From: an uncultured Alphaproteobacteria bacterium
GTDB taxonomy: Bacteria; Pseudomonadota; Alphaproteobacteria; Rs-D84
Assembly: GCA_949878575.1 (NCBI GenBank)
Contig: CATLAX010000002.1
Span: forward strand, 65,378-129,377
DNA length: 64,000 nt
Direction: 5' to 3'
Shown: in pieces, positions 5,668 to 47,493 of the stretch
Layout of the letters: each line of letters starts with the position of its first letter
Position numbering within the stretch: position 1 is the stretch's first letter
Notes under the pieces: model-generated
Told to the model about the DNA's origin: nothing
The model's database searches: none
The model's input: the letters and a program-made list of their open reading frames with translations, nothing else
Translations under genes and position numbers: made by a program

Positions 5668-8283
5668 TTACGCCATGCGCCGCATTACAAATTTACGCAT
5701 CATATCCAGTGGCACGACCATTACCGCCAAACAGAACACAACCGCCCATTGAACCATATTCAACGGCGCCACCTGTAACGCCGCGCCGCCAAATGTAACA
5801 CACATCACGCATCCGCCGATCACCCCCAGCGCCACGAATATAAACATCGGGTTTTCACGCAGTCCGGCCAACAGATTGTATCCATCCGCGCGTATATTGA
5901 ATCCGTTGAATATCGCCATTATAACCAGCAACGCAAAACACGCGCCCGTATATTCGGCGCCGGCAAACAGGCCGCGCACAGGGCCCCAAAACATCACCGC
6001 AAACAACCCTAAGAAAATAAAAGTTGAGACCGCGATTTGAATTATTGACTTGCGCGGCAGCAGCGGCGCCCCTTTGGCCGGGGTGGGCGTGCGCATGTAT
6101 TCTGGGCGCGGGGCTTCGCCCCCAAAGGCCAGGGAATTCAAACTGTCCATCACGATGTTTATAATCAATATCTGAACGGCGGTCAAAACCTCGCCCCCGA
6201 TAAGCAAAGGGAACGCGATGCACAATGCGACCAGACTAAAATTAATCGGTAATTGAAACCGCAGAAAACTGACCACGTTATGCAAAAAGGTGCGCCCGAT
6301 AAGGACACTGTTCGCAACAAATACAAAATTATTGTCCGTTATGATTATGTCGCCGGCCTCTTTGGCGACATCGGTGCCCGCCCCCATTGCAAAACCGACA
6401 TCCGCCCGGCGCAGTGCCGGCGCATCATTTGTACCGTCGCCACACATGCCGATACTTTTGTTCTGCGCCTGGGCAACGGAAATAACACGCAGTTTTGTCG
6501 CGGGCGTGGCGCGCGCTATAACCTTTATCCGCGACAGATGACGCGACAGCCATTCATCCGTATGCGAATCCAAATCTGTCGCGCTTAAGACAATATCGTT
6601 CCGTTTGGTCAATATTCCGCAATCATCCGCAATGGCGCGCGCGGTGTCAATATTGTCGCCGGTAATCATCATTACCTGTATTCCCGCACCGTGCAGCATA
6701 TCTATCACATCCGGCACCCCCGGACGCAATTCGTCGCGCATCGCGGTAATGGCCAGCAATGTCATATTTTCCGGAATATTATCGCCCGCGACATCCCCGG
6801 AAACATATGCAGAGGCCACAACGCGCAACGATTTTGCGGCAAGCTGTTTCTGTACATCCGTCGCCACATTACGATTTAGACGACGAACACGACCAGATGC
6901 ATCAACATAATTACGACACCTGGCCAATACGCATTCCGGCGCACCGCGAACAAACGTTGTTGTTTCACCAGTACTGTTTTTACGTGCCGTTGTCATTGCA
7001 TATTTTACGGCACTGTTAAACGGAATCTGCCGGGTAACGGAAAAATTCTGCAACACATCGCGCGCCGTATGGGACGCCACCGATGACAACACTGCACGGT
7101 CGGTACTGTTGCCGCCCACGGGCTGAGCAGATGCATCATATGCGGCCCCGTTGTTTAATACAACACTTTGCGCATACAGTTCACGAACAGCGGCCAATTC
7201 GCCCATATCCGGGGAACAATCACGGCCGTCGCCCAAAACATTCATCGCCACAGACAGCTGCCCGCGGGTCAGTGTGCCTGTTTTATCCGTGCATATAATA
7301 TGCAGATTACCGGCCGCGGGAATTTTTTGCGGATTTTTCGGCAGAATATGATTTTTCGCCATGCGTGCCGTATTACGACTGATTATTATACTGATGATAA
7401 AAGGCAGACCTTCGGGAACGGCGGCAACAAATATGGTCAGAGCAATCGTCAAATCCCCCAGCATCATGCGCAACGACGACATTGTAAATGCCAAATCGCC
7501 AGCCCTGTATTGCGTCAGCACCAGCACCGCAAATATCACGACCGCCGACAGTGACCCGATGCGCCCTATTCCCGCCGCCATGTTATCCAGTTGAATCTGC
7601 AGGGATGTTTTTACGGCGCCGACAGTATTCAAACTGCTTAATATCCGGGCGTTTTGTGTGTCGCCGCCGATACGCGTCACACGCATGACGCCGGTTCCGC
7701 TTTGAACGGTGGTGCCGGCAAAAACACTGTTCGTGTCCGTATAATCATCCGCGGTTATATTTTCTTTGCGCCGGTAACGATACCCGGGGACGGGGCGTTT
7801 GTCACAATCATCGGATTCCCCGTTCAATATGGCGTTGTTTACCGCCAGCGCACCGTCCACAACATATCCGTCGGCACAGATTATTTCACCCGCGCTTAAC
7901 AACACTATATCACCGACGACAACATCCGTGCTTTGCAGGCGCTGCAGTCGTCCGGCGCGAATAACGCGGCAAAAATAGCGCGACACCTGGCGTTGCAGCT
8001 CGCGAGAGCCAGCCTGGGCGCGCAGCTGCGTTCTGACGCTGATAACAGATACGATAAGCAAAACCGCGGCGATACCCAGCGCCTCGTAAATATCGCCGAC
8101 ACCTATCACGGCCAGCCCCGCAAACAGCCCCAGCATTATCAGCAGAATAAGGTTTATCTTGTCTTGAAAAACCTGTTTAAAAAAATACCATGCGGATTTT
8201 GGCGCGGGCATGGGCAGTATGTTATGACCGTATTTTTTGCGACTGTCCGCGACCTGGGCGGGCGACAATCCTTTGAATTTCAT
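5668..8283 (-). CDS. P-type cation-transporting ATPase (P2-type, Ca2+/Mg2+-ATPase-like)
   Basis: DKTGTLT phosphorylation motif, MITGDN, GDGTNDAPAL and 10 predicted TM segments. Probable start is MKFKGLSPAQ at 8283; the ORF as listed extends to 8313. Confidence 0.9.
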   Translation of the reverse strand: MKFKGLSPAQVADSRKKYGHNILPMPAPKSAWYFFKQVFQDKINLILLIMLGLFAGLAVIGVGDIYEALGIAAVLLIVSVISVRTQLRAQAGSRELQRQVSRYFCRVIRAGRLQRLQSTDVVVGDIVLLSAGEIICADGYVVDGALAVNNAILNGESDDCDKRPVPGYRYRRKENITADDYTDTNSVFAGTTVQSGTGVMRVTRIGGDTQNARILSSLNTVGAVKTSLQIQLDNMAAGIGRIGSLSAVVIFAVLVLTQYRAGDLAFTMSSLRMMLGDLTIALTIFVAAVPEGLPFIISIIISRNTARMAKNHILPKNPQKIPAAGNLHIICTDKTGTLTRGQLSVAMNVLGDGRDCSPDMGELAAVRELYAQSVVLNNGAAYDASAQPVGGNSTDRAVLSSVASHTARDVLQNFSVTRQIPFNSAVKYAMTTARKNSTGETTTFVRGAPECVLARCRNYVDASGRVRRLNRNVATDVQKQLAAKSLRVVASAYVSGDVAGDNIPENMTLLAITAMRDELRPGVPDVIDMLHGAGIQVMMITGDNIDTARAIADDCGILTKRNDIVLSATDLDSHTDEWLSRHLSRIKVIARATPATKLRVISVAQAQNKSIGMCGDGTNDAPALRRADVGFAMGAGTDVAKEAGDIIITDNNFVFVANSVLIGRTFLHNVVSFLRFQLPINFSLVALCIAFPLLIGGEVLTAVQILIINIVMDSLNSLAFGGEAPRPEYMRTPTPAKGAPLLPRKSIIQIAVSTFIFLGLFAVMFWGPVRGLFAGAEYTGACFALLVIMAIFNGFNIRADGYNLLAGLRENPMFIFVALGVIGGCVMCVTFGGAALQVAPLNMVQWAVVFCLAVMVVPLDMMRKFVMRRMA

Positions 8284-8323
8284 GATATGACATCCATCTT
8301 TGTTCAATAGCAATTATAATGCC

Positions 8324-8357
8324 AAAAAAGAAAATCCCCTTCAAGGGGGATTTTCTT
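8324..8357 (-). terminator. Rho-independent terminator downstream of autotransporter gene
   Basis: Hairpin aaaatcccctt-caa-gggggatttt with a flanking T-run on the minus strand. Confidence 0.5.
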
Positions 8358-8371
8358 TAAACCGCCGGCAC

Positions 8372-11299
8372 TTAGAAACGATACCGCGCGTTCAGCATGC
8401 CGGTCTGGGACGTATAGTCGCGTCTGATGTCAATATTATAACTGATGCCCAGTTCAACCTGGTCAAACGTCAGGTTCAGCCCCGCGCCCAGTTCCAGTCC
8501 CAGACGTTCCAGACGTTCGCCGTCCAGACCATATTTGGACACACCCGGGACGGATACTTTAACATCATCCGCCTGGGAAACAATGTCGTAATTTACCATC
8601 GCACGCAGTTCCGGACGCAGCAATATGGTATCTGTCGCCGCGAAATCATATGCATATTTTGCACCCAGACCCGCCGTTAGAAAATCCGAATCCGCCGACG
8701 AAACATTTATGTCCATATTGGTATCGTATGAATCTGATGTGATGTGCAGATAGCGCAATGTGGCCTCCGGCGTGATGCCGAACGGCAAATCATACCCTGT
8801 TGTCACCGCGGCACCGTATGCGTCTATATCACGGTCTGATTTTACTTTCATGCCGAATGCATCGCCATGCTCTGACAAATCGGCCATGGTGTAATTTAAC
8901 ACGCCGTTTACATACCACTGCGACGGCTTATACTGGCCGTATACGAACAGTGTGTTTCCGTCTATGTCGGCATTGCGCGCATACATGTCCGCATCGGCCG
9001 TACTAAACGCGTAACCGGCGCCCAGCGTAATGTCATGTCCGGCAATGAAATCCAGACCGGCCGCGAAACCGTACATGTCATAGTTAAACGCGCCATCACT
9101 GTCGGATTTGTTCATCATACCCGCGGCCCATACATGCGACACACCGTACACAATGTCACCCAGTTTGCGCCCCATATCCGCCAGACGCGCGGATACCAGA
9201 CGCCCGACGGAACCCTGTATGTTGCCGGCGACAGACTGTGCAATCGGCGAATTGTCCGGCTGCAACGCATTTGCGGCATGTTCCACCGCGCCGGCATCAC
9301 CCGCCGCCAGCGCCTTTTGAGCATTTACAACCATGCCGTTTAACGCATCGGATGATGAATTCGCCATATTTACAATCATATCGGCCGCTGATGCGGACAG
9401 ACCCGCCCCTGCAATGGCATCCGCGGATTTAACAGACGCAACGATGAAATTATTTTCATCCAGCACAACATCAAACAGCGAATTTTCCAACAGACCGACA
9501 TGAACATTTTCAAAACCAGAGTTTTTGAATATATCATACGTTCCGGCACGGCCAACCGACAAATTCAGGTCGCCGACACCTTCAAAGGACTTTACATCAA
9601 ACGTTGCATATTCCTTGTCGTTGCGCAGTTCCGCGTTCAACACGCCGTCCAAGACTATTGTATCCTGGGTTACGGACGACACACCAATATTTGCAACCGC
9701 GCCCTTTTCAATGGTCATTGTACCGTTGCCCGTAATAACGCCATCCGACGTCATAACCGCACCGTCGCGCAGGGTCAGTGCGCCATTGTTATGCCATACC
9801 GCACGTGGTCCGACGGATATTTTGTTAAATTCCGCGACATTGCCGGCCGTGTCCAGATTTACGTTGTTCATGCTTAACGCTGTGTCGCCCTTTACGTTAT
9901 ATGCGCGCAGGTCGCCCTTAACATTAACAGCGCCGCCGCCGGATATGTTCAATACGGCGTTGCCGGTTACACTGTCGGCATCCGAATTATCCGGCGCCGA
10001 TTTCTGGCGACTGCCAATATTTACATCACCGGCGATATTAATCGTGTTTCTGGCACCGTCCGTGTCCAGATTCACGGTTGTGTTTCCAACGCGGCCGCCC
10101 GGACGCTGGGCCCCGGCGATAATCCAACCGTCGGCCCCCGGCGTTGTGACATACTTGCCATCGTTGCCCAATGTATAACCTATCCATGTGTTTCCGGAAA
10201 CGTCAACCGTTACGTTACCGGCGGACAGATAATTTCCAACGGCGATAACCTCTTCCCGTATAACGGAATCCTCTATATCAATATTCACATTCCTGGCGCC
10301 GACATAATGTTCGGGAACCCATGTTTCCCAGCCATTAACATTCGTCGTGGTGGAACCGCGAACCTGGCCTAGGTTGGAATTTTCAACATCAATGTTTATA
10401 TCGCCCAAAACACCCGTGTCACCTTTTACGGCCCCCATGGCAATCTGTTGGCCGAAAATGCCAGGCGCCGTCACATTATCCGCCTTTATTGTCAGATTTC
10501 CGTCAATAACGTTGCGGTTTCCACCTGACGCCATCAGGCCGACAACACGATCAGATGCAACAACGTTTTCCAAATCCAGCGTAACATCGCCATGCACAAC
10601 AGAACCCGCGCCGGTGGCGTATATTCCATACATTGTGGAATTTGAAACGGTTGCATCCACGTCGCCGTTTATAACACCGCTGCTTACACCGCCACGATTG
10701 CCGAAGTATAAATTACCCATTTTCAAATTATAATTATCAAACACCATCTTTTGTCCGGTGATGACAGATTCATAGCCACCGGTATAAATATGCGTCAGGA
10801 CATCGGCTGTTGACGCATTGTCCAGATGATTGCCGTTTAAGAACACTCCGCCGATATAACCGCTGCCGCTGGTTGCGATTTTAACGTTGTTGTTGCCGGC
10901 GAAAATAAAATTGCCGGATGCCGCCGCAGTGGTTGCCAGATTAAACGTCTGATTCGGATTCCATTTATTAAACACAACTGTCGGTGTCCAGTTGCCAGGA
11001 TGCTGCGGTTCACTGGAAGCATGCTGATTACTGGCAAAAACACCCGTAAATCCGCCAACATCGCCCAGCAAATGTAAAAAGACATCGGTTTTATCGCCCT
11101 CTCGCACCAAAACAGTGCCGTCACCGGTCAGCGTGCCGGTATATCCTGTGCTGGTCAAAACATCCCAGGTATCACCGGCCGCAATGTTACACGTGTCGCC
11201 CGTGCAAGTTACATTGGCCGCCATGGCCGGCATAACAATCAGCGCAGGCAATACGGAACACGCCTTTAGCAAGGTTACGAATTGTTTTGGATACGGCAT
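8372..11299 (-). CDS. Autotransporter (type Va) outer-membrane protein with large G/N/V-rich beta-helical passenger
   Basis: Signal peptide MPYPKQFVTLLKACSVLPALIVMPAMA. The passenger is repetitive. The C-terminal beta-barrel domain ends ...MLNARYRF (aromatic terminal residue). RBS ggagataaaac upstream. Confidence 0.8.
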   Translation of the reverse strand: MPYPKQFVTLLKACSVLPALIVMPAMAANVTCTGDTCNIAAGDTWDVLTSTGYTGTLTGDGTVLVREGDKTDVFLHLLGDVGGFTGVFASNQHASSEPQHPGNWTPTVVFNKWNPNQTFNLATTAAASGNFIFAGNNNVKIATSGSGYIGGVFLNGNHLDNASTADVLTHIYTGGYESVITGQKMVFDNYNLKMGNLYFGNRGGVSSGVINGDVDATVSNSTMYGIYATGAGSVVHGDVTLDLENVVASDRVVGLMASGGNRNVIDGNLTIKADNVTAPGIFGQQIAMGAVKGDTGVLGDINIDVENSNLGQVRGSTTTNVNGWETWVPEHYVGARNVNIDIEDSVIREEVIAVGNYLSAGNVTVDVSGNTWIGYTLGNDGKYVTTPGADGWIIAGAQRPGGRVGNTTVNLDTDGARNTINIAGDVNIGSRQKSAPDNSDADSVTGNAVLNISGGGAVNVKGDLRAYNVKGDTALSMNNVNLDTAGNVAEFNKISVGPRAVWHNNGALTLRDGAVMTSDGVITGNGTMTIEKGAVANIGVSSVTQDTIVLDGVLNAELRNDKEYATFDVKSFEGVGDLNLSVGRAGTYDIFKNSGFENVHVGLLENSLFDVVLDENNFIVASVKSADAIAGAGLSASAADMIVNMANSSSDALNGMVVNAQKALAAGDAGAVEHAANALQPDNSPIAQSVAGNIQGSVGRLVSARLADMGRKLGDIVYGVSHVWAAGMMNKSDSDGAFNYDMYGFAAGLDFIAGHDITLGAGYAFSTADADMYARNADIDGNTLFVYGQYKPSQWYVNGVLNYTMADLSEHGDAFGMKVKSDRDIDAYGAAVTTGYDLPFGITPEATLRYLHITSDSYDTNMDINVSSADSDFLTAGLGAKYAYDFAATDTILLRPELRAMVNYDIVSQADDVKVSVPGVSKYGLDGERLERLGLELGAGLNLTFDQVELGISYNIDIRRDYTSQTGMLNARYRF

Positions 11300-11422
11300 T
11301 GTTTTATCTCCTTTTTATATATTAAATCCTAGGACAAAAAACATACACATGTAAAGAAAAAACATCTTGACTTGAAGTTCAACAATTTATACTAGATTTT
11401 GCATAGTAGTTAAGGAGAAAAT

Positions 11423-11779
11423 ATGAAAAAAATTTTAATTTTATCTGTTGTTGCATTGGCGGCATGTAGTCAAGATTACAGCAAATACGATTCCATTTTT
11501 GAAGGATGTGAAAGAATAGAAACAACCGAATTTCATTTAGTTTATAAGTGTCCAGCAGAACAAGAATGGGCCCAACAAGTAAAACAGCTGCAACCAAACG
11601 GCAAATTTAGGGCTGGTGGTTATTTGAATTTGTCCGAATTATATGCAGATAAAGAACACGTATATGCAGAGGTATCATTTGACGACCCTGGAATGTGCAA
11701 AGAAAACTTTACAATACGTACAATGATTGCCGAACCTATCGAAGGAGGAGAAAATTGGGCATTCGTTGGTTGCAGATAA
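11423..11779 (+). CDS. Small lipoprotein, hypothetical (AT-rich gene)
   Basis: 118 aa with lipobox LAAC-S. RBS aaggagaaaat. Markedly lower GC than neighbours. A terminator follows. Confidence 0.5.
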   Translation: MKKILILSVVALAACSQDYSKYDSIFEGCERIETTEFHLVYKCPAEQEWAQQVKQLQPNGKFRAGGYLNLSELYADKEHVYAEVSFDDPGMCKENFTIRTMIAEPIEGGENWAFVGCR

Positions 11780-11802
11780 ATATTATTAAATAACAAGTTA
11801 GA

Positions 11803-11830
11803 AAGTGGTGATTTTTCACCACTTTTTTAT
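11803..11830 (+). terminator. Rho-independent terminator
   Basis: Hairpin aaagtggtga-ttttt-caccacttt followed by TTTT. Confidence 0.6.
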
Positions 11831-11905
11831 TTCCAACTTTCGAACTTGCTAAAAACATTAGAAAACAAATAAAAAACCGCTCTGAAACGAGCGGTCGTAA
11901 AACCT

Positions 11906-11979
11906 TGGTTGGGGCAGCTGGATTCGAACCAACACTGACGGAGTCAGAGTCCGGAGTTCTACCGTTAAACTATGCCCCA
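11906..11979 (-). tRNA. tRNA-Gln (anticodon CTG)
   Basis: Cloverleaf folded by hand: acceptor UGGGGCA/UGCCCCA, anticodon loop CUCUGAC, T-loop GGTTCGAATCC, 3' CCA encoded. Confidence 0.8.
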
Positions 11980-12048
11980 AGCGTCGTGGATTATATAACA
12001 CCATTATTCCATTTGCAAGAACTTATTTTATATGAAAATATATGTACT

Positions 12049-12531
12049 ATGAAATATTATAATTTTTATGAATCCCCTGTTGGGCGGTTAACAATGGCAA
12101 GTGACGGCGACAAGATTACCGGGCTGTGGATTGCAAATCAAAAATATTATGGGCGCAACCTGAATCCGGATGCAAAACCGGCACCTGATTTGGAAATATT
12201 TCAAATAACCACCAAATGGCTAAACGAATACTTTGATAAAAAAATACCGGAATGCGCACCGCCCCCGCTGGTGCCATACGGAACAGATTTCCAAAAAGCC
12301 GTATGGCGGGCATTGCAAACAATACCGTACGGACACACCGTTACATATGGCGATATTGCCAAACACATGGGAACATCCGCACGCGCCGTTGGAGCCGCCG
12401 TTGGCCACAATCCCATATCCATAATAATTCCATGCCACAGAGTCCTGGGCGCCGACGGGGCACTGACCGGGTACGCCGGGGGCGTGAAAGCAAAACAGAT
12501 TCTGTTGGCGCTGGAAGGTATCAAATTTTAA
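12049..12531 (+). CDS. ogt: Methylated-DNA--protein-cysteine methyltransferase (Ogt/MGMT)
   Basis: Active-site IPCHRV motif and the HTH region GDIAKHMGTSARAVGAAVGHNP. The start is placed at MKYYNF (12049) to avoid overlap with tRNA-Gln. Confidence 0.85.
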   Translation: MKYYNFYESPVGRLTMASDGDKITGLWIANQKYYGRNLNPDAKPAPDLEIFQITTKWLNEYFDKKIPECAPPPLVPYGTDFQKAVWRALQTIPYGHTVTYGDIAKHMGTSARAVGAAVGHNPISIIIPCHRVLGADGALTGYAGGVKAKQILLALEGIKF

Positions 12532-12630
12532 CCCCACAATCATAGACCAAACTTTTTTTTGACAAAATATATTGACAAATAGCGTTTTTTGGATATTATG
12601 TCTTTCATAATACAAATTTAAGGGGCAGAA

Positions 12631-13374
12631 ATGTTCAAAGAACTGAAATTGAAAATCGCCGCGCGCCGCGTAGGTCGCAAAACCACAAACAGCCGTCGGC
12701 GCAATACTCGCAAGGCCACAACTTTTTGGGGACGCGTTTGGCATATTATCTGTGCACCGTTTCGCCTGATTGCAAGAATCGCCGCAGCAATATGGGCATG
12801 GATTCGCAGTATTGACTTAATAGGTTTGGTAAACACGACCCTGTTGGTTGCGATTATCGTGCTGTTTTCCATGTTGATTATCAACATTATCGGATGCGGC
12901 AGAAAAAATGTAATTATAGTTGCCGATGCCCCGGCAATAGCGGTGGCGACAGAAAAGCCGCAAGTCACATTAACCGATGAATCTGCACCGGCCGCGATAA
13001 AGCCCCGTCCGGATCTGCCGATACGCCGCGATCCGGCCACACGAAAATTCCAGGCGCATACCGTTGACACGTCAACTGTCAAATGCGACACAAACCCGGT
13101 GACAATGTATGGCGATGTTATCATAGACCGTCGCGGTCAATGTCCGGCTTTGCGCGACGGCGTGCATATCACAGGCAGCCTGTATTTGCAAAACATGCGT
13201 AAATACACATTGCCGTGCGGGGCGGTAATTGACGGCAACCTGTTCCTGCGCGATGTTGAAATGCTGCAGTTCTGCGGGGATTTCACCGTCAAAGGAAACA
13301 TTTATGTCAGTCCGCGTTCATCATTCGGGCCGATACCGCGCACGGCGCGCCTGGGCGGACAGGTTATTTTGTAA
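12631..13374 (+). CDS. Hypothetical membrane protein
   Basis: 247 aa with a basic N-terminus, two hydrophobic segments and a C-terminal Cys-containing domain. RBS aaggggcagaa. Confidence 0.45.
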   Translation: MFKELKLKIAARRVGRKTTNSRRRNTRKATTFWGRVWHIICAPFRLIARIAAAIWAWIRSIDLIGLVNTTLLVAIIVLFSMLIINIIGCGRKNVIIVADAPAIAVATEKPQVTLTDESAPAAIKPRPDLPIRRDPATRKFQAHTVDTSTVKCDTNPVTMYGDVIIDRRGQCPALRDGVHITGSLYLQNMRKYTLPCGAVIDGNLFLRDVEMLQFCGDFTVKGNIYVSPRSSFGPIPRTARLGGQVIL

Positions 13375-13407
13375 ACAAACGGGTCGCAAACGCGACCCGT
13401 TTGTTTT
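13375..13407 (+). terminator. Rho-independent terminator
   Basis: Hairpin aaacgggtcgc-aaa-cgcgacccgttt followed by gttttt. Confidence 0.65.
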
Positions 13408-13468
13408 TGCTTGCACCACGGCAAGTGTTTCCTATATAATATAAAGCATCCAAACGAAGGGAATCAAA

Positions 13469-13687
13469 ATGAACACATTTGAAAAAATTTTAAACGTACT
13501 GGCCAAAAATTTGGGCTATACAGTTGTGCTGGTTGCGGCGATTATTTTGTTCGCACTGTTTTCCGGCGGTCTGTTGCGCGGCCTGATTACGGCTGGTTCG
13601 GCACTGATTGCATACGCGTGCATAGAACTGCTGTACAAACAGTTCAAAGAAACGCCCGCACCGAAAAAGGTTCAAAAGCGCAAATAA
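13469..13687 (+). CDS. Small membrane protein, hypothetical
   Basis: 72 aa with two predicted TM helices. RBS gaagggaatcaaaatg. Confidence 0.4.
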   Translation: MNTFEKILNVLAKNLGYTVVLVAAIILFALFSGGLLRGLITAGSALIAYACIELLYKQFKETPAPKKVQKRK

Positions 13688-13716
13688 AAAATCCCGCATT
13701 TGCGGGATTTTTTTTA
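13685..13716. terminator. Bidirectional rho-independent terminator (between small ORF and secG)
   Basis: Hairpin atcccgca-tt-tgcgggat flanked by an A-run and a T-run. Confidence 0.65.
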
Positions 13717-13725
13717 ATCTTGTTT

Positions 13726-14088
13726 TTACTGATTGTCCGCCGCGGCGTCATCCGTCGTCGCATTATCCGCAGCAGCATCCACAGGTGCGCCGGCCATATC
13801 CGCATTTTCCTGAATCAGCAATTCCTGACGCAGATTGCTTTGACGCGACGCCATGTCGGATTTTGACGATACCAGCGCCAATGCCGCGCACAATAAAAAG
13901 AATATTGTCGCCAACCACGCCGTCAACTTTGTTAAAAAGTTTCCGGCCGCCGCCCCCGTCAAGGCACCGCCAAACATTGACGCCGCCGAAGAACCGGACA
14001 TTCCGCTGCCCTCTGATTTCTGCAGCAATATTACGCAGGTCATAAAAATTGCAACTATTATCAAACACACCAGTAAAATTGTAAACAT
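13726..14088 (-). CDS. secG: Preprotein translocase subunit SecG
   Basis: 120 aa; N-terminal TM then LLQKSEGSGMSGSSAASMFGG glycine-rich loop typical of SecG, then a second TM. Confidence 0.8.
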   Translation of the reverse strand: MFTILLVCLIIVAIFMTCVILLQKSEGSGMSGSSAASMFGGALTGAAAGNFLTKLTAWLATIFFLLCAALALVSSKSDMASRQSNLRQELLIQENADMAGAPVDAAADNATTDDAAADNQ

Positions 14089-40337: not shown

Positions 40338-40413
40338 GGGGACATAGCTCAGTTGGTAGAGCAAATGACTTTTAATCATTGGGTCCAGGGTTCGAGTCCC
40401 TGTGTCCCCACCA
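40338..40413 (+). tRNA. tRNA-Lys (anticodon TTT)
   Basis: GGGGACATAGCTCAGTTGGTAGAGC... with anticodon loop CUUUUAA and GGTTCGAGTCC T-loop. CCA encoded. Confidence 0.9.
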
Positions 40414-40421
40414 GAATAAAA
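40398..40421 (+). repeat. attL core (direct repeat, overlaps tRNA-Lys 3' end)
   Basis: Exact 24-bp match to 47470-47493. Confidence 0.8.
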
Positions 40422-40548
40422 TTGTTAGAAATCCAACACTTTTGTTGGGTTTTTATTTTTTTGGTTTGAACCACACGAAACACACCAAAGCCTTAGAAAT
40501 CCAACATTTTCGTATTTTCACTTTTGCCAGAAACAAAGGGATACAGAT

Positions 40549-42114
40549 ATGGCAAAAACGTGTAATACAAGGTGTAATACAGACCACAATATATTATTGC
40601 GAAACAACATTTTTTATTATAGGGTTGAATTACCACGAGAAAACGGTAAAAGACGGTTCTTGTGCAAGTCTTTAAAGACATATAATTACTATGAAGCACG
40701 GGAAAAGGCTAAAATTATGGCTGAACAACTGCAAAATTTTGAAGTGCACGAATTCATTAAATCCATAGAATTATTGTGGAATCAGTTAAGTTTTGGCTAC
40801 GAATACCCAAATTTTGGTAAAAATATTTATGGTTTTATGCCGAATACCCCCATACGAACCATTTTGCCAGATTCTAGACCAGAAATTATCAATGGTCTGT
40901 TAGAAAAAGCAGATAAATTAAACCTGATTAAAAATAAGTCTTTGTCTGCACACGAAAAATCCGTTATAAAATTACTGAAAGAAAACAAAGAAAAACTGAT
41001 AGAATTGCAAGAAGATAATAATAAATTATTGGATAAAAATAACCGATTACTTGAAATGCTAATTTCTCATCAGGCCGCGAACACCGTGGCACAACAACCA
41101 AAAGTTGTTAAACATACGGTCGGGGAAATTTTGACATCTATGGTAAAGACGGCAAATAATGAAAAAGCCGAATCCGACCGAAAATATCCTGCAATAAAAA
41201 AACTTATTCAAGATGTCGGACTCGGGCTTGATTCTGATTATATGGATTTTTACAAACCGGAAATCATGCATAAAATTGGAGATTCTGTCCGTAATATGCC
41301 CAATGTAAAAAGTGGCACACAGCGAAAATACATCCAATATGTTATCCAGTTGATAAAGCACGCCCATATTTTGGAACCTGATACATATAAAGAAAATCTG
41401 ATACAAATATTACCAAAATTTGAAAAGACACCGAAATCTCAACAGAAACCGCACATGCCGTATACTGACGACCAGTTGTCGGAAATGTTTGACCCAAAAC
41501 ACGACTTTTTCAAAAAGAATCCCGACCAATTCTGGACAGCAATGATTGCATTGTTTACGGGTTCACGACAAAATGCCGCAATGACCCTGCAATATGGGGA
41601 CGTGCTTAAAAAAGATGGTTTGGATTGTATCCATTTTACTGAAAATCACTCCATTAAACACCTTAAAACAGAAGCCTCTGAACGTATTGTCCCGATAGCA
41701 CAACAATTCTTAAATTTGGGATTTGTAGAATATGTGCGGAACAGACAGGCAAAATTAAAGGCAGCAGATACAGATTTTATATTTCCGAAATGTCAAACCA
41801 GTGGTGGACAGGAAAATAATAAATTTGCAACCCGTGGAATATTAAAATTCTTGTCGGATATTGATATTAAAGATAAAAACGGGGATAAACAGGATTTTCA
41901 TTCTTTCCGTAAAAATGCCAGTTTAAGACTGCAAAAAGTGGGAGTTTTACCAACCTTTATCAATGACATTATTGGTTGGGAAGGCAAAAGCACAATGGAA
42001 CAATCCTATTCCAATCACAGATTACCCGAAATCAAGGAACAGGTGGATAAATTAAACTATGATTTCCTGCAACCGCATTTTGACAAGTGGAAAGAAATAA
42101 TGAAAGGGGTATAA
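40549..42114 (+). CDS. Tyrosine-type site-specific integrase (phage integrase family)
   Basis: C-terminal catalytic signature R...HSFRK...Y (HSFRKNASLRL; ...EQSYSNHRL). Located immediately 3' of the tRNA. The true start may be an internal Met (e.g. MAEQLQ). Confidence 0.8.
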   Translation: MAKTCNTRCNTDHNILLRNNIFYYRVELPRENGKRRFLCKSLKTYNYYEAREKAKIMAEQLQNFEVHEFIKSIELLWNQLSFGYEYPNFGKNIYGFMPNTPIRTILPDSRPEIINGLLEKADKLNLIKNKSLSAHEKSVIKLLKENKEKLIELQEDNNKLLDKNNRLLEMLISHQAANTVAQQPKVVKHTVGEILTSMVKTANNEKAESDRKYPAIKKLIQDVGLGLDSDYMDFYKPEIMHKIGDSVRNMPNVKSGTQRKYIQYVIQLIKHAHILEPDTYKENLIQILPKFEKTPKSQQKPHMPYTDDQLSEMFDPKHDFFKKNPDQFWTAMIALFTGSRQNAAMTLQYGDVLKKDGLDCIHFTENHSIKHLKTEASERIVPIAQQFLNLGFVEYVRNRQAKLKAADTDFIFPKCQTSGGQENNKFATRGILKFLSDIDIKDKNGDKQDFHSFRKNASLRLQKVGVLPTFINDIIGWEGKSTMEQSYSNHRLPEIKEQVDKLNYDFLQPHFDKWKEIMKGV

Positions 42115-42421
42115 CAATATCCCTTTTTTTTCGGTTTACATTTTATAATCCATTAAATATAATAGGTTTTGAATCAGTGGGGACACTGGTTCGGGGTCAT
42201 CTCAGGCCTAGTATGTTCGGTGCAAAACATAGAATACATCGTGATTCCGATTTCCTATGTTTTGACGTCGTTATTATCCCTGACTGTTATAGTCGGGGAG
42301 CTGTTGGTTATAAAACACGGTTTTTCCGAAAGACCAATGGGGTCAATAACATACTGATTTGAGAACTCCCCGACCGCTAGTGTTCTGCTAGTGGTCTAAT
42401 TTTTATACAAAGGGGAAAAAT

Positions 42422-42943
42422 ATGTTTCTTGTTTTGGCTTTGATATATTTCTTGCCAACAATAATCGCAATATGCAGAAAGTGCAATATTGGGCTTACGT
42501 TATTGGTAAACTTGTTCCTGGGGTGGACATGTATAGGTTGGATTGTTGCGTTGGTTCTGGCATTAAAAGGTACTGAATCCGTCCGAAATCAACCAACCAT
42601 TGTGATAAACAATACAAATGCCGATGGAAATGCAAAAATTCAACAAGACGTGAGAAATATAGCCCAAGACAAATACGCAGATAAAACAGAAAAAAGCATG
42701 CGTGGTGCAAGTCCATTAGCTGTTGGAATATGGTCTGCAATATTGGGAATATTTGGTTTAGCGTGGATTGGAACATTTGACCCAACAATGGGTTTTATCG
42801 CATTACTGGGGTTGGCTGGTTTGGGCTTTGAGGCTTGGGAATGGCTAAAAGTAAAATTTAACGATTCCATTGAACAAGCCGCACAAAAGAAGTCTCAAGA
42901 ACTCAAACAACAATTAAATAAAAAAGGAGCAAAAAATGACTGA
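42422..42943 (+). CDS. Superinfection-immunity (Imm)-like membrane protein
   Basis: The N-terminal YFLPTIIA...NLFLGWTCIGWIVALVLAL matches the Imm_superinfect family pattern. Additional C-terminal TM helices. Confidence 0.45.
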   Translation: MFLVLALIYFLPTIIAICRKCNIGLTLLVNLFLGWTCIGWIVALVLALKGTESVRNQPTIVINNTNADGNAKIQQDVRNIAQDKYADKTEKSMRGASPLAVGIWSAILGIFGLAWIGTFDPTMGFIALLGLAGLGFEAWEWLKVKFNDSIEQAAQKKSQELKQQLNKKGAKND

Positions 42944-43403
42944 AAACAAACCAACAAATATAGCCTTTAATAAAACAATTCTGTATTTTATGGCTATAGG
43001 CTGTATTCTTGTCGCACTGGTTTTATTTTTTAATAGAAACAATGCCGAGTTAAACATGGGAAGCAGTCTTATTTTTTATATAATTTGGGGTTGTATACTA
43101 TTATTTGGATTTGGTGGATTTAAACTGCTGTATAAAACATTTGGTGATAACCAACCTGCAATAGAATTCAATCCAAAAGGAATGATAATACACAGTTTGC
43201 AAAACGAAAAGTTGAACAAATATGTTTTATGGAAAGATGTTGCCGACATAGAAATGGGAGCAAATGGTAAAATCCGTATAAAATATAAAGATACCAACTT
43301 AGACGCAGAGGAAATAACATCGTATTTGTTCAATATCCCCAAACAGGAATTATTCAAAGTTTTATATTCGTATGCAAAACAGTATGGGGATATAAAAAAC
43401 TAA
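42936..43403 (+). CDS. Hypothetical 2-TM membrane protein (island cargo)
   Basis: 155 aa with two N-terminal TM helices and a cytoplasmic domain. Overlaps the preceding gene (ATGA coupling). RBS aaaaggagcaaaaaATG. Confidence 0.45.
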   Translation: MTENKPTNIAFNKTILYFMAIGCILVALVLFFNRNNAELNMGSSLIFYIIWGCILLFGFGGFKLLYKTFGDNQPAIEFNPKGMIIHSLQNEKLNKYVLWKDVADIEMGANGKIRIKYKDTNLDAEEITSYLFNIPKQELFKVLYSYAKQYGDIKN

Positions 43404-43429
43404 GCATATTATAAACAAAGGAGAAAAAT

Positions 43430-43858
43430 ATGTATACAAATAATGCAGCAAAATCAAATTCTGTAATAGGCTGGTTGGCAGCATTCGGATATATTATTGG
43501 TTATGTCCTGCTTTTATTTATAGGCCAAGCCGCTACTTGGATTAGTGTAATTTTATGTGTAGTAGACCGTCAAACCTTAAAAACATACGGTAAACATATT
43601 GCATTGGGTTGGTGTTTGTTACCACCTGTTTATATGTATAAACGTGCCAAAGTGTTGAATGATGGTTTTACAAAATTCTGGGTAAATTTAATAACCGCAA
43701 TCATATTCATTATATTAGCAGTTTATGCCGTGGTTCATACGACATCTTGTATGACGCAAGCATTGCCGTATTTTAATAATAATCACGAAATTGCAGCCCA
43801 GTTCTGTCAATGCACATTGGGTAATTCACCAGAAGAATGTTTGCGAAATTTGTTATAA
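43430..43858 (+). CDS. Hypothetical membrane protein (island cargo)
   Basis: 142 aa with three hydrophobic segments. RBS aaggagaaaaatATG. Confidence 0.45.
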   Translation: MYTNNAAKSNSVIGWLAAFGYIIGYVLLLFIGQAATWISVILCVVDRQTLKTYGKHIALGWCLLPPVYMYKRAKVLNDGFTKFWVNLITAIIFIILAVYAVVHTTSCMTQALPYFNNNHEIAAQFCQCTLGNSPEECLRNLL

Positions 43859-43949
43859 CCAATGTAAGGCAGATGTAAATCTGCCTTTTAAATACTCATT
43901 TTTACCTGGGCGACTGCCATTTGACGAATATATAATTGTATAAAACAAG

Positions 43950-44147
43950 GTGGCAAAAATGAAAATTGCATACGCTAAACAGTCTGGGAATATGGTAAGT
44001 CTTTATGACCCGAATAACCGTGAATATGTCCGTATATCTGGTGAACTGGTGTCTTATACATCTGAATTTGTAATAACCCGTGGCAGTGGGATAAATGGAC
44101 CAAAACACATTTATAATGCCTGTGGTCGGTGGGTTCGTGATATTTAA
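43950..44147 (+). CDS. Small hypothetical protein (island cargo)
   Basis: 65 aa. RBS aaggtggcaaaaATG. Confidence 0.35.
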   Translation: MAKMKIAYAKQSGNMVSLYDPNNREYVRISGELVSYTSEFVITRGSGINGPKHIYNACGRWVRDI

Positions 44148-44650
44148 TGCTGAAATGTCGGCAGGTTGAATAACGTCTCGGAAAATATCAATCTGTCCGT
44201 ATTAAAATGTCCTAGGTTATCCGCCGTGATTTCTTTTGTTATATACCCGTTTAATATATCTGGGGTTCGGTCTATTTCCTGCAAATCAAGAGTCCTGTCG
44301 GTCAATTTTAATTTTTCCGTTATATTATCCAGCGCAGTTTGAATTTCCGTGTCTGTGTATTTTGGAGCCCATAATAACAAATGCAGGTGCCAGACTTTAT
44401 TTGCCCCCAGTTCTGCCGTTCCGACAAAATGCACTGGGTTCCGATTCCAATGACGCCCGACAAGGGATTTTTCAAAATGCCGTATTATTTTATGAAATTT
44501 TGGCAGAGCCCTTTCAAAACTATCCGTATATGCCCCTATCGGTAGTCGGACGGTCAAGAAATGTGAAAATATTTGATTGTTTAACCAGTCTTGCAAGGAT
44601 TCCTGTATTTTCTGGGTTTGTGTCGGGCTGTAATAAGTTATGTTTTTCAT
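44144..44650 (-). CDS. Small rolling-circle replication initiator-like protein (HUH endonuclease motifs)
   Basis: The three ordered RCR motifs are present: FLTVRL (motif I-like), VWHLHLLLW (HUH, motif II) and NGYITKE (YxxK, motif III). Confidence 0.5.
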   Translation of the reverse strand: MKNITYYSPTQTQKIQESLQDWLNNQIFSHFLTVRLPIGAYTDSFERALPKFHKIIRHFEKSLVGRHWNRNPVHFVGTAELGANKVWHLHLLLWAPKYTDTEIQTALDNITEKLKLTDRTLDLQEIDRTPDILNGYITKEITADNLGHFNTDRLIFSETLFNLPTFQH

Positions 44651-45187
44651 TTATTGCTCTTTTTTATTTTAATGAGTCCAGATAAAGCAATTCCCAGTTG
44701 ATAAGGGATTTATATATCTTTATTTTCTCTGCATTCTGGATATAAATTTTTATGGTTAAAATTCATTTATATTTATGTAATCTGGTATAAAACGATACTT
44801 GGCGGAAATTTCGCCATAACGCGAGGTGCCGAAATTCCAGACAAAATCCGTCAATATGGCTATATATGAGCCCACACCAGAGGGATAATGTCGTTAAAAC
44901 ATACCCGAACCCTTACCAGATGGCCTGTCTAGTAAGGGTCGGATATTTTGCACATGCACAATACGAAAAGGCCTTTTTCGTCTGACCCGGGGGAGTATTT
45001 ATTATTTGAGTTCAGAAAGAACCACGATTTTCCCCGTTCTGTATCCCCGGGGCGACGTTTTACCGCTCCGAGGTATATATTAGAACTGTGTTCGTATAAT
45101 TATATTTTTGTGTAAAACTTTTTGTTTTATAAATATTTATAGGGGGAGTATAAATAAAATGGGAAACTGGGAAAGTGGGATTTTCGG

Positions 45188-45214
45188 GTAAAAAAAAGTG
45201 GGGAAATTCCCCAC
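45188..45214 (-). terminator. Rho-independent terminator after helicase gene
   Basis: Perfect palindrome gtggggaa-a-ttccccac followed by a T8 run on the minus strand. Confidence 0.5.
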
Positions 45215-45231
45215 CGTTTTTAATATGTAAT

Positions 45232-47070
45232 TTAATCCGTTGTCGGTAAAAACATTTCTGAAACAAATTTATATAGTCTCGGAGTTCCTTGATATGGCAC
45301 CTGCTTTTTTCGCGCAATATGTGTACCGTCTTTATCTGGCTCAATCCAACCCCATTCTACCAGTTTCTTTTTTGCCCGAGATGTGGGAAACCCTTTCAAA
45401 ATGGTGTTTTCCAAGACTTCTGGATAAACCCAGTAAATACATTTATTCCCAAGTTTACCTTCAAAATATCCGGCCATATCGTATACCTTATCGTCCGTAC
45501 CGCAGTATGTAATGTCCTTGAATTTGGAAAATCCATTACATTCAAAAAATAGCCGTACTTGCCGTTTTAAACGCTCCGTTTCCGTCAGTCGGTCAGGATT
45601 ATCTCGCCATTCATTAAACAGTTGTAAAGCAGCATCTTTTGCAACACCGAACTCCCAACCTGTTATTCCCCAATGGGTTGCCAATTCCCCCGCAAAACCA
45701 ACCAGTGCAAACCGCTTAAACGCCCGATTTTCGGCAGACTCCATATCGGTTGGTAATTTGGCTCGTAATGGCTCAAAGAATCTCTTAAAACTAGCCTGAA
45801 CTTCATCTTTGACAACAACCAAGGATTCCAAAAACTGTACTAATGGAACCCCATAAAATTTTCCAGTGCATTCATTAAGGTGTTCGGCAAATTTTCCCCC
45901 GTTTTCAAAACCGTGCAAATTGTCAAAAATACCGCTGATAGAATTTTGTGATACCGCAGGAATACTGATGAAACGAATTTCCTGCCCGTCCTTAATCGTC
46001 TTTCTAGATTCTGCAATATGGGTTTGAAAATCGATTTCGCCAGATGACAGAAATAAAGTAATCCATTTTTTTACGGCTCGTTTAGTCCACGTATGGTTAA
46101 AACGCCCTTTACCTTGCCCATTTGCAAGCATATACGCAACATTCCCCGTTATGGAACTAGGTAATTGTCCAACTTCGTCCAATACCAACAATGTATCGTT
46201 GTGAGATTCCGCCGTACTTTCTAGTGCATTATCTGTCGTCCGCCAAGAGTGCATATAATCCCTGTTTCCGCATACTGAGGTTGCCACTTTTAGCAAAGTC
46301 GTTTTTCCTGTGGAAGTCCGTCCATAAATATGAAAACCACCACCCTCTATATCACAAAGACGTAGCAAAGGTGCTGCAAAGGCACAACTTACCCCGAAAA
46401 TCAATCTGGAATTCCCAGTACAATACTGACCGATTTGGCTTTTCCATTCGTCCAAAGTTCCTTGGCAGATGTAACCGTTCGCATCGTCTGAATTGAAATA
46501 TAACTTGGCATTCTGCGTTCCTATAATTTTGGTTGGCAGAACGAAATTCTTTTCCGCCCACCCAGTGCGTTTGGTTTCCAAAATGATTTCCTGGGGTTTA
46601 AAATTGGTTATATATTCGCACAAACGGTTTTGTTCACATTTCAAGACGAAAAAGCCTTCCAGTAATAACTCCGATATAACCTCATTACCTCTAGCCAGGG
46701 AGTCCCTTGGTATATACTTTTGGCAGAGTTTGTCTTCAAAATTCTTAAATTCGACCAAAACACCCCACGATTTTGCGTCCTTGGTTTTGGTCAGTTTGGA
46801 CACATTGATATAATTTGAAACCCGACTATACACCACATTATTCGGTCCCTCGCTATCGGGGCTTTCAATTGACTCTACATGGAATAATCCATAATCCCGT
46901 AAGATAAAGCCGCCTGGAGTTCCTGGTAGCTGACGCAAACTTTCCTGTTCAAACTGTTCATAACTTACAGAAAATCTATTTAATTGCTTTAAAAACTCCT
47001 GTTCTTTATCGGACGTTCTGGGGTCATCTTGTGCTTGGTCTAATAAATCTTCAATTTTTGAATCGCTCAT
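45232..47070 (-). CDS. SF3 helicase/primase-associated ATPase (P4/D5-type replicative protein)
   Basis: Walker A GRTSTGKTT, Walker B LLVLDEVGQL, downstream motif C. 612 aa with an N-terminal domain of unknown type. Confidence 0.65.
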   Translation of the reverse strand: MSDSKIEDLLDQAQDDPRTSDKEQEFLKQLNRFSVSYEQFEQESLRQLPGTPGGFILRDYGLFHVESIESPDSEGPNNVVYSRVSNYINVSKLTKTKDAKSWGVLVEFKNFEDKLCQKYIPRDSLARGNEVISELLLEGFFVLKCEQNRLCEYITNFKPQEIILETKRTGWAEKNFVLPTKIIGTQNAKLYFNSDDANGYICQGTLDEWKSQIGQYCTGNSRLIFGVSCAFAAPLLRLCDIEGGGFHIYGRTSTGKTTLLKVATSVCGNRDYMHSWRTTDNALESTAESHNDTLLVLDEVGQLPSSITGNVAYMLANGQGKGRFNHTWTKRAVKKWITLFLSSGEIDFQTHIAESRKTIKDGQEIRFISIPAVSQNSISGIFDNLHGFENGGKFAEHLNECTGKFYGVPLVQFLESLVVVKDEVQASFKRFFEPLRAKLPTDMESAENRAFKRFALVGFAGELATHWGITGWEFGVAKDAALQLFNEWRDNPDRLTETERLKRQVRLFFECNGFSKFKDITYCGTDDKVYDMAGYFEGKLGNKCIYWVYPEVLENTILKGFPTSRAKKKLVEWGWIEPDKDGTHIARKKQVPYQGTPRLYKFVSEMFLPTTD

Positions 47071-47374
47071 TTTATCACCTATATAATTTTAAAAGTTTGC
47101 AAAAAACACGTCCATTTTTTTATAAATGGAAAGTATTTTGCGGTTTAATTTTCGGAAATAGGAGGCCACCCTAATGCCTTACGCAAACACTAACCCCGTT
47201 TTTTTGTGGTCGCAATAAATAAATTTCATTTTTACGAAGAAATTTTCAATTGTTTGAAAAATTCCCGAAATATCAAAGGGTTTATAATAATGCACTTAAC
47301 CGACTCAATGGAAAATAATTTATAAAAATACCCGTTTACATTGTCTGAAAATGGTATACAATAGAATTGCAAAA

Positions 47375-47396
47375 GTGTAATACAAGGTGTAATACA
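47375..47396 (+). repeat. Copy of 22-bp sequence gtgtaatacaaggtgtaataca (also at 40560-40581 at integrase 5' end)
   Basis: Exact 22-bp duplicate, itself an internal direct repeat of gtgtaataca. Confidence 0.6.
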
Positions 47397-47469
47397 TTTT
47401 AACAATTTTGATGGTAGGAATCTGGGAAAAGGTTAAAATCCTAGGGTTTTATAAACTTATGGTTTGTTC

Positions 47470-47493
47470 CCCTGTGTCCCCACCAGAATAAAA
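47470..47493 (+). repeat. attR core (direct repeat of tRNA-Lys 3' end)
   Basis: Exact 24-bp match to 40398-40421. Confidence 0.8.

Follow-up and report, generated by a model that had tools for sequence, protein, structure and literature searches.

A defence hotspot in a tRNA-Lys island of an uncultured alphaproteobacterium holds an Imm-domain membrane-protein cassette behind a candidate regulatory leader RNA

We analysed four small co-oriented open reading frames (ORF1-4) that lie downstream of a tyrosine integrase gene (int) in a 64,000-nt stretch of DNA from an uncultured alphaproteobacterium of the GTDB lineage Rs-D84 (GenBank assembly GCA_949878575.1, contig CATLAX010000002.1, positions 65,378 to 129,377 of the forward strand; hereafter the window, whose own numbering is used for all coordinates unless another contig is named). 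These genes belong to a 7.07-kb mobile island (40389-47493) that sits in a tRNA-Lys gene and is bounded by attachment (att) repeats. ORF1-3 occupy a variable slot of this island which, in related islands, is filled by known defence systems, and the first of them carries a domain related to the superinfection immunity protein Imm of phage T4. T4 Imm keeps the DNA of superinfecting phage from passing through the inner membrane (PMC11436027, which cites Lu and Henning 1989), and anti-phage systems, some of them with transmembrane (TM) proteins, are established inhabitants of hotspots that conserved phage and satellite genes flank (Rousset et al. 2022, PMC9122126). From the Imm homology and the position in the island, we favour anti-phage exclusion, most likely acting at the envelope, as the function of the cassette, and judge the case for it to be about evenly balanced.

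The borders of the slot were defined by aligning the window with BLASTN to sister islands, that is, to fetched contigs (L numbers) that encode variants of ORF4 and of the island's Rep-like protein. Nucleotide identity to the sister islands is 95-98% in both flanks; it ends at 42125/42127 and returns at 43892/43894, and the sequence in between is unrelated. The left break point falls just past the terminator hairpin of int and the right one 65 nt upstream of ORF4, and both agree across three kinds of sister island (L007-type, L014/L017-type and L022-type). In L014 and L017, the slot contains two type II methyltransferases together with a type II restriction enzyme (PADLOC REase_II, 5.9e-97; MTase_II, 1.6e-88). 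In L003-L013, it is filled by a C5 methyltransferase, a HaeIII-like restriction endonuclease fragment, a 533-aa OLD/GajA/AriA-like ATPase (PADLOC AriA/Old/GajA-like ATPase, 1.8e-21 to 1e-14), Fic (PADLOC PDC-S04, 9.1e-52) and VbhA, and the islands of this group (e.g. L007 1965-8444) have lost the equivalent of window positions 44254-47327, which amounts to most of Rep and all of DUF927. The occupants in L022-L024 are VbhA/Fic, an Eco57I-like methyltransferase with a 351-aa partner, and a Hachiman HamB helicase (PADLOC, 2.9e-71). Since conserved flanks enclose alternative contents that include known defence systems, the reading of the slot as a defence hotspot, with ORF1-3 as its occupants here, is well supported. 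The initial annotation had described a cargo hotspot of four genes; the hotspot stands, and its cargo is reduced to ORF1-3 within the borders listed in Table 1.

ORF4 is a conserved backbone gene and not cargo. Its eleven variants, which share 92-98% identity, are found on many contigs beside every cargo type, and the gene is kept even in islands without Rep and DUF927. It is convergent with the Rep-like gene, with which it overlaps by 4 nt, and its product has no match in Pfam, PADLOC, PHROGs, NCBIfam or PDB sequences. On the minus strand, a promoter-like site (43956-43927) is directed from here into the slot, and the cargo beside ORF4 in sister islands is transcribed in that direction.

All four genes are present and co-oriented, as originally described, in a stretch with a G+C content of 0.33-0.38, and ORF1-3 are far longer than chance would give in such AT-rich DNA: the three longest same-strand reading frames amount to 470 codons, whereas none of 2000 Markov shuffles gave more than 320. 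Hydropathy places hydrophobic segments in ORF1, ORF2 and ORF3 and none in ORF4, in agreement with the earlier count of three TM proteins. The genes do not follow the integrase directly, as had been stated, but are separated from it by a 307-nt spacer with a promoter-like site, a structured leader RNA and a terminator. Translational coupling, proposed for the whole group, fits only the first pair: ORF1 and ORF2 overlap by 8 nt (ATGACTGA), whereas a 26-nt gap separates ORF2 from ORF3, which is preceded by its own Shine-Dalgarno sequence, and the 100-nt gap between ORF3 and ORF4 contains both a hairpin of -13.3 kcal/mol and the boundary between cargo and backbone. The 25 nt around the starts of ORF1 (42401-42425) and ORF3 (43409-43433) are 88% identical (TTTTATACAAAGGGGAAAAATATGT versus TTATAAACAAAGGAGAAAAATATGT), a resemblance which suggests that the cassette may have been assembled from units with a common translation-initiation region.

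The superinfection-immunity-like motif that had been noticed in ORF1 (LGWTCIGWIVALVLAL) proved to lie inside a significant match to PF14373 (Imm_superinfect), in which residues 8-48 cover positions 1-42 of the 42-position profile (E 9.4e-12; 45.1 bits, with the cut-off at 27.9). A second match is to phrog_1039, 'immunity to superinfection' (4.5e-16), and by tblastn (1e-5) residues 2-65 share 47% identity with annotated imm genes of T4-like coliphages. Across ORF1 and 15 homologues, residues F10, P12, T13, N30, L31, L33, G34, W35, G39, W40 and A43 are invariant, and the two predicted TM helices of the domain carry the conserved motifs P-T-I-I and N-LFLGW-GW. Hydropathy points to membrane-spanning segments at residues 1-23, 23-51 and 95-119, and probably at about 121-140, so that the Imm domain is followed by a polar linker, roughly two hydrophobic helices and a lysine-rich tail. 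This C-terminal half (66-173) has no relatives, all 15 other matches covering the Imm domain only, and a search of PDB sequences with ORF1 gave nothing significant. ORF1 is a chimera: the segment 42126-42619, which comprises the promoter, the leader and about the first 66 codons, is 84% identical to a locus by a tRNA-Gln gene on contig L027, from a related genome, and the homology ends inside the gene. The protein encoded at that locus (P0039, 236 aa) is 89% identical to ORF1 over the N-terminal Imm-domain region.

The L027 locus also resembles the cassette in gene order. An Imm-domain gene is adjacent to an ORF3-family gene in three divergent loci, namely in the window, in L027, where the gene for P0039 is followed by that for a 111-aa ORF3-family member, and in L034/L035, where the gene for a 226-aa PF14373 protein is followed by that for P0054, the best ORF3 relative, beside two serine recombinases. 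P0039 and the 226-aa protein are homologous over their full length; in both, an Imm domain and a single TM helix are followed by a C-terminal domain that contains cysteines. The strongest argument for a joint action of at least ORF1 and ORF3 is that the pair recurs in three loci although their ORF3-family members are only about 30-35% identical.

The initial annotation had found no recognisable homology for any of the three proteins downstream of ORF1, and this holds for ORF4, which is without family or PDB match, but not for ORF2 or ORF3. A profile search with ORF3 and P0038 through 1.84 billion representatives retrieved 60 relatives of ORF3 at E<=1e-3, 13 of them at E<=1e-10; one homologue of ORF3 is 63% identical to it. 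Residues W15, D46, P66, Y68, K71 and R72 are conserved in the family core (alignment A4), which no Pfam model covers. The family shares with phrog_12486, an uncharacterised phage protein family, the core W...D(R)..LK...W..L.P.Y.YKR, and this profile matches 16 of 27 family members (best 5.4e-38), which associates the ORF3 family with phage, although ORF3 itself matches weakly (8.1e-4). Hydrophobic segments of ORF3 span residues 10-46 and 78-110. The C-terminal tails of the family are variable and often cysteine-rich, with one to three repeats of a C...CxC...CL module, and some members have N-terminal GYF_2, SHOCT or zinc-ribbon modules. Neither ORF3 nor P0054 has a tblastn match in 50,697 phage records. 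A remote homology of the ORF3 family to the Imm family was considered and rejected (hhalign probability 3%).

At 44.8 bits (E 1.2e-11), ORF2 exceeds the curated cut-off of 40 for the STM3941 family (NCBIfam NF041635), with residues 14-128 aligned to profile positions 3-116 of 157, and by this measure we class it as a divergent member of that family. It resembles the family in having two predicted N-terminal TM helices followed by a soluble domain, and differs in being very divergent. STM3941 proteins are uncharacterised small membrane proteins whose name is mentioned in a single, unrelated paper. Beyond this profile, ORF2 has no match in Pfam, PHROGs, PADLOC or PDB and no tblastn match in the same phage records or in 72,556 plasmids.

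Upstream of ORF1, the spacer is occupied by a structured leader RNA of about 235 nt behind a sigma-70-like promoter (Table 1). In the four leader copies whose upstream sequence can be aligned (alignment A9), inspection by eye shows a promoter-like -35/-10 pair at the same spacing from the leader. The predicted fold consists of a 5' hairpin (42171-42192), a closing helix that pairs 42193-42206 with 42358-42371 around three hairpins, and an intrinsic terminator with U run (42372-42396, -15.8 kcal/mol) that lies 16 nt before the ORF1 start. Homologues of the leader were found by BLAST, by pattern scan and with a covariance model built in this analysis (R1), and together with the window they make up six distinct copies. 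Every copy immediately precedes a different gene, and the copies are spread over islands, chromosomal islets and one P2-like phage contig. RNAalifold gives 55 pairs in the leader. Across the six copies, 94.3% of the cells in these pairs form standard pairs, compared with 34-48% for slid controls, and 26 of the 55 pairs change on both sides (shuffle mean 9.2, with 0 of 500 shuffles as high), values which come from a six-sequence alignment fitted to the covariance model. An independent MAFFT/RNAalifold run on four copies yielded 8 compensatory pairs.

No Rfam 15 family matches the leader region (42130-42425) at E<=1 with permissive filters. The first leader pattern found no match in viral contigs; a looser hairpin pattern found 102 stretches there, mostly by chance, and the covariance model kept 1 of the 80 that were fetched. 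An alternative reading of the spacer as a 62-aa ORF with a TTG start (42169-42357) was rejected, since its frame stops after 15 codons in L032 and conservation tracks base-pairing; indels between the copies whose lengths are not divisible by three rule out a coding explanation. By analogy, the order of promoter, multi-helix junction, terminator and ribosome-binding site is that of a transcription attenuator or riboswitch, a likeness that extends to conserved unpaired nucleotides in the junction and to an intrinsic terminator with the ribosome-binding site and start codon within about 25 nt. In a candidate alternative pairing, GUCGGGGAG (42291-42299) could bind CUCCCCGAC (42366-42374), a segment shared between the closing helix and the base of the terminator. 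The leader differs from known leaders of this kind in lacking an Rfam match and in the unrelated genes downstream of it (Imm-like, two methyltransferases, adhesin-like, lipoprotein), all of which belong to mobile or variable loci. Because these accessory genes are functionally unrelated, a metabolite-sensing role is not obvious, and we regard the leader as a candidate new cis-regulatory RNA for mobile-element cargo. The phage contig with a leader copy (L086) encodes, by eye only, a 749-aa tape-measure-like product and tail-like products in 6996-14010, and its end, with the leader-driven lipoprotein gene and a PLD/Nuc-like gene (HKD motif), resembles a phage moron region.

The cassette is self-contained, with its own promoter, a leader with terminator, genes for three small predicted inner-membrane proteins and a 3' hairpin. 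If it does act in phage exclusion, it would protect the host, and hence the island, from phage at the cell envelope. The Imm domain of ORF1, placed in the inner membrane, would stop incoming phage DNA from crossing, as T4 Imm does. ORF3 may assist ORF1 or broaden the range of phages excluded; under the positive-inside rule, its conserved basic loop would probably be cytoplasmic and its four-cysteine tail periplasmic, and the tail could, speculatively, contact phage ejection proteins in a manner loosely analogous to T4 Sp. ORF2, as an STM3941-like protein, would be an accessory, and the leader with its terminator would probably gate transcription of the cassette by attenuation, limiting expression. 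A more far-reaching model, which we put forward tentatively and consider somewhat unlikely, is that Imm-domain and ORF3-family proteins constitute a previously undescribed two-component envelope exclusion system, with an STM3941-like third subunit here, under a new class of infection- or signal-responsive attenuator- or riboswitch-like leader that also gates restriction-modification genes and other morons in the mobile elements of this lineage. That all three genes work as one machine is less probable than an exclusion function of the cassette as such. The earlier proposal that the genes form a system gains from the adjacency of Imm and ORF3-family genes in three loci, and loses from the restriction of ORF2 to this cassette and the presence of the ORF3 family elsewhere.

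A number of observations weigh against exclusion, or against its attribution to a multi-protein system. The pairing is not obligatory: ORF3-family genes form tandem paralogues after a TM2-domain gene in L036 (3385-5162) and a tandem pair in L039 (3-580), and others lie on short contigs on which no Imm gene is seen. Because ORF2 has no close relatives and the ORF3 family also occurs apart from Imm, a three-part system is not established; ORF2 falls into a cluster of its own, with no relatives by 5-residue words among 5.8 billion clusters. Selection on the cassette is unmeasurable, since cassette and island are identical base for base in L001 and L002, the only further contigs in this comparison, and for ORF2 there is a single variant, K148Q. 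Neither of two checks suggested by the initial annotation spoke for its candidate defence module: ORF1-4 matched no model of a known or candidate defence protein in PADLOC-DB 2.0 at E<=0.1, the sole entry being LeoBC at E 0.42 for ORF1, and the AlphaFold2 models of ORF2 and ORF3 were of low confidence (predicted local distance difference test scores of 60 and 56), with no fold match in BFVD at E<=0.001. Genes that are not obviously defensive, for the YadA-anchor protein in L032 and the phage lipoprotein in L086, also stand behind a leader copy. ORF1 is twice the size of T4 Imm, with a C-terminal half that is unique to it; within the broad family PF14373, T4 Imm is, to our knowledge, the only characterised member; and both the host and its phages are uncultured.

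Other functions have to be weighed against exclusion. The TM proteins of hotspot systems are usually considered suicide effectors (PMC9122126), and ORF1-3 might form a membrane-acting abortive-infection module whose pore-forming or depolarising effectors are silenced by the leader and terminator until infection; a strong terminator immediately upstream of ORF1 would suit a toxic product, and there is a resemblance to holins in the C-terminal half of ORF1, with its lysine-rich tail after about two TM helices, and in ORF3, with its basic loop. We consider this improbable, given that the cassette has no sensor, enzyme or nucleotide-signalling component, that T4 Imm, the sole characterised homologue, is non-toxic and acts on DNA entry, and that no PADLOC effector model matches. 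Small proteins with two to three TM helices and charged C-termini would also be expected of a holin/antiholin-like lysis cassette for the release of the island or of a helper phage. This reading ranks low because no endolysin was found in the island, nor was a spanin; the N-terminus of ORF1 is an Imm domain rather than a holin family, and the genes sit in a cargo slot rather than in a lysis module, all of which makes lysis very improbable.

A role at the envelope that has nothing to do with phage has to be considered too, since the leader also drives a YadA-anchor adhesin-like gene and a lipoprotein gene, so that cassettes of this type are not confined to recognised defence genes. ORF1-3 would then be an envelope moron that hitch-hikes in the slot and makes its host immune to a bacteriocin that targets membranes or to a contact-dependent toxin, or serves some other envelope fitness role. 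Small multi-TM proteins are typical of immunity proteins, and both the STM3941 and the ORF3 families are uncharacterised, but all other occupants of the slot are recognised defence or toxin-antitoxin gene sets, the homology of ORF1 is specifically to phage superinfection immunity proteins, and the ORF list of the window has no toxin gene nearby, so we think a moron of this type unlikely. It is likewise doubtful that three independent single-gene morons share the cassette and that ORF1 alone acts in exclusion, with no interaction between it and ORF2 or ORF3. Such independence would fit the restriction of ORF2 to the cassette, the tandem paralogues of ORF3 in L036 and L039, the chimeric make-up of ORF1, and contig L033, where an ORF3-family gene precedes a lipoprotein gene behind what by eye is an apparent promoter of its own; it is opposed by the recurrent Imm/ORF3-family adjacency at low identity, by the overlap of ORF1 with ORF2, and by the provision of a single promoter and a single terminator for all three.

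Set beside T4 Imm, a protein of about 83 aa, ORF1 has in its residues 1-65 the same two-TM domain with the signature F-LP-IIA...N-FLGWT-IGW-ALV, and differs in its extra C-terminal TM helices, which bring it to 173 aa, in its location on an integrative island rather than in a lytic phage, in the structured leader that precedes it, and in its predicted co-transcription with two other membrane proteins. The slot as a whole is comparable to the P2/P4 hotspots (PMC9122126) as a 1-5 kb locus of high turnover that a pair of conserved genes flanks in a small mobile element, and which in the sister islands holds restriction-modification, OLD/Gabija-like, Hachiman and toxin-antitoxin genes. It differs from them in its backbone (tyrosine integrase, ORF4, Rep-like protein and DUF927; about 5.3 kb without cargo) and host lineage, and no hallmark genes of P4 or of phage-inducible chromosomal islands (PICI) were found in the island.

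The hotspot principle, tRNA-integrated islands and the Imm family are already known. As far as the libraries and literature searched can tell, the island backbone as a carrier of a hotspot, the three-gene cassette, the leader RNA, the extended Imm-domain proteins and their pairing with a phrog_12486-like family are new or undescribed, and the greatest novelty may lie in the leader, which falls just outside the interval of the initial annotation. Compared with defence inside the cell, exclusion at the envelope has received far less study, and tools of the PADLOC type are largely blind to it; a 1.8-kb three-gene cassette in a slot whose alleles elsewhere are bona fide defence systems offers a small test bed for envelope immunity. 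The pairing of Imm-domain and ORF3-family genes leads to a concrete partner hypothesis for the mechanistically obscure T4 Imm family. If the leader is a regulator, mobile elements of one lineage would share a portable control module for their cargo, and the island family defined by int, ORF4, the Rep-like gene and DUF927 provides a compact new backbone for mining defence candidates in uncultured bacteria.

Table 1. Coordinates of the island, its variable slot and the copies of the leader RNA (window numbering unless a contig is named).
Feature	Position	Strand	Evidence or remark
tRNA-Lys(UUU), integration target	40338-40413	+	ARAGORN; Rfam tRNA 77.5 bits
attL, tRNA-Lys 3' end	40389-40421	+	direct repeat D1
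Tyrosine integrase (int), 521 aa, backbone	40549-42114	+	PF00589 1.9e-10; phrog_1 integrase 1.8e-20
Terminator-like hairpin at int end, left slot border	42102-42127	+	terminator scan; -12.0 kcal/mol, z -3.4
Variable cargo slot, 1766 bp	42127-43892	+	BLASTN break points; promoter, leader RNA, ORF1-3, 3' hairpin
Sigma-70-like promoter, TTTACA-17-TATAAT	42135-42163	+	best site in scan, 11/12
Structured leader RNA, ~235 nt	42166-42406	+	minimum free energy -92.6 kcal/mol, z -5.2
ORF1, 173 aa	42422-42943	+	N-terminal T4-Imm-like domain, two predicted TM helices (residues 1-50)
ORF2, 155 aa	42936-43403	+	two predicted TM helices and ~85-aa soluble domain; start overlaps ORF1 stop by 8 nt
ORF3, 142 aa	43430-43858	+	predicted membrane protein; conserved core, C-terminal tail with four cysteines
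Terminator-like hairpin closing the cassette	43866-43887	+	-13.3 kcal/mol, z -5.2; 5 nt before backbone identity restarts
ORF4, 62 aa, soluble, backbone	43959-44147	+	ATG start as in public gene calls; GTG at 43950 in the initial annotation
Rep-like protein, 168 aa, backbone	44144-44650	-	PF23343 REP_ORF2-G2P 27.7 bits, just below the 27.8 cut-off
DUF927 primase/helicase, 612 aa, backbone replication module	45232-47070	-	PF06048 9.3e-72; phrog_1139 DNA primase 4.2e-65
attR, tRNA-Lys 3'-end repeat, right island end	47461-47493	+	D1: 33 nt, 88% identity, spacing 7072
Leader copy, window (with promoter)	42135-42421	+	upstream of ORF1
Leader copy, L027	2754-3020		upstream of P0039 (Imm-domain protein)
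Leader copy, L032	748-1000		upstream of YadA-anchor protein
Leader copy, L022	6197-5946	-	upstream of the slot's Eco57I-like methyltransferase
Leader copy, L007	4981-4777	-	upstream of the slot's C5 methyltransferase
Leader copy, L086 (P2-like phage contig, IMG/VR)	13458-13218	-	upstream of 228-aa lipoprotein gene

The extent of the island follows from the repetition of the tRNA-Lys 3' end at its right border and from the drop in G+C content between the two repeats, from about 0.50 to 0.33-0.41, with a return to about 0.48 after 48000. It is integrative and probably self-replicating, with a backbone of int, ORF4, the Rep-like gene and the DUF927 primase/helicase gene. The 3' two-thirds of int are 95-98% identical in sister islands (BLASTN), and the Rep-like gene is conserved at 96-97% in L014, L017 and L022; the DUF927 protein is weakly similar to the Cch1 helicase of staphylococcal cassette chromosome elements (1.4e-17). 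A search with the integrase found only two distant relatives, in metagenome-assembled genomes of Alphaproteobacteria, and the Rep-like protein has none among species-representative genomes and no tblastn match in the 50,697 phage records or 72,556 plasmids. Structural, packaging and conjugation genes were not found in the island's own gene set (ORF list, Pfam, PHROGs), and since the search revealed neither hallmark genes of P4 or PICI nor genes for packaging or capsid redirection, its status as a satellite is unproven.

Near both ends of the island stands a 26-nt repeat, AAA(C/A)GTGTAATACAAGGTGTAATACA (tandem GTGTAATACA), at 40556-40581 and 47371-47396, with 96% identity between the copies, the left of which overlaps the first codons of the annotated int ORF; these repeats are probably arm-type integrase binding sites. 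The widespread degenerate derivative represented by L003-L013 retains int, the defence-laden slot, ORF4 and the att end. In its host genomes, the tRNA-Lys gene adjoins a Cas9 gene, and the MFS flank has the opposite orientation to that in the window. Neither the DNA uptake sequence of Neisseriaceae nor the uptake signal sequence of Pasteurellaceae occurs in the 64-kb window. A second variable locus lies at 8372-11779 of the window, between a cation-ATPase gene and a tRNA-Gln gene, and corresponds to L027 2714-4093 and L032 700-1716. In the window it contains a 975-aa autotransporter and a 118-aa lipoprotein-like ORF, in L027 the leader, the 236-aa Imm-domain gene and the ORF3-family gene, and in L032 the leader and the YadA-anchor protein.

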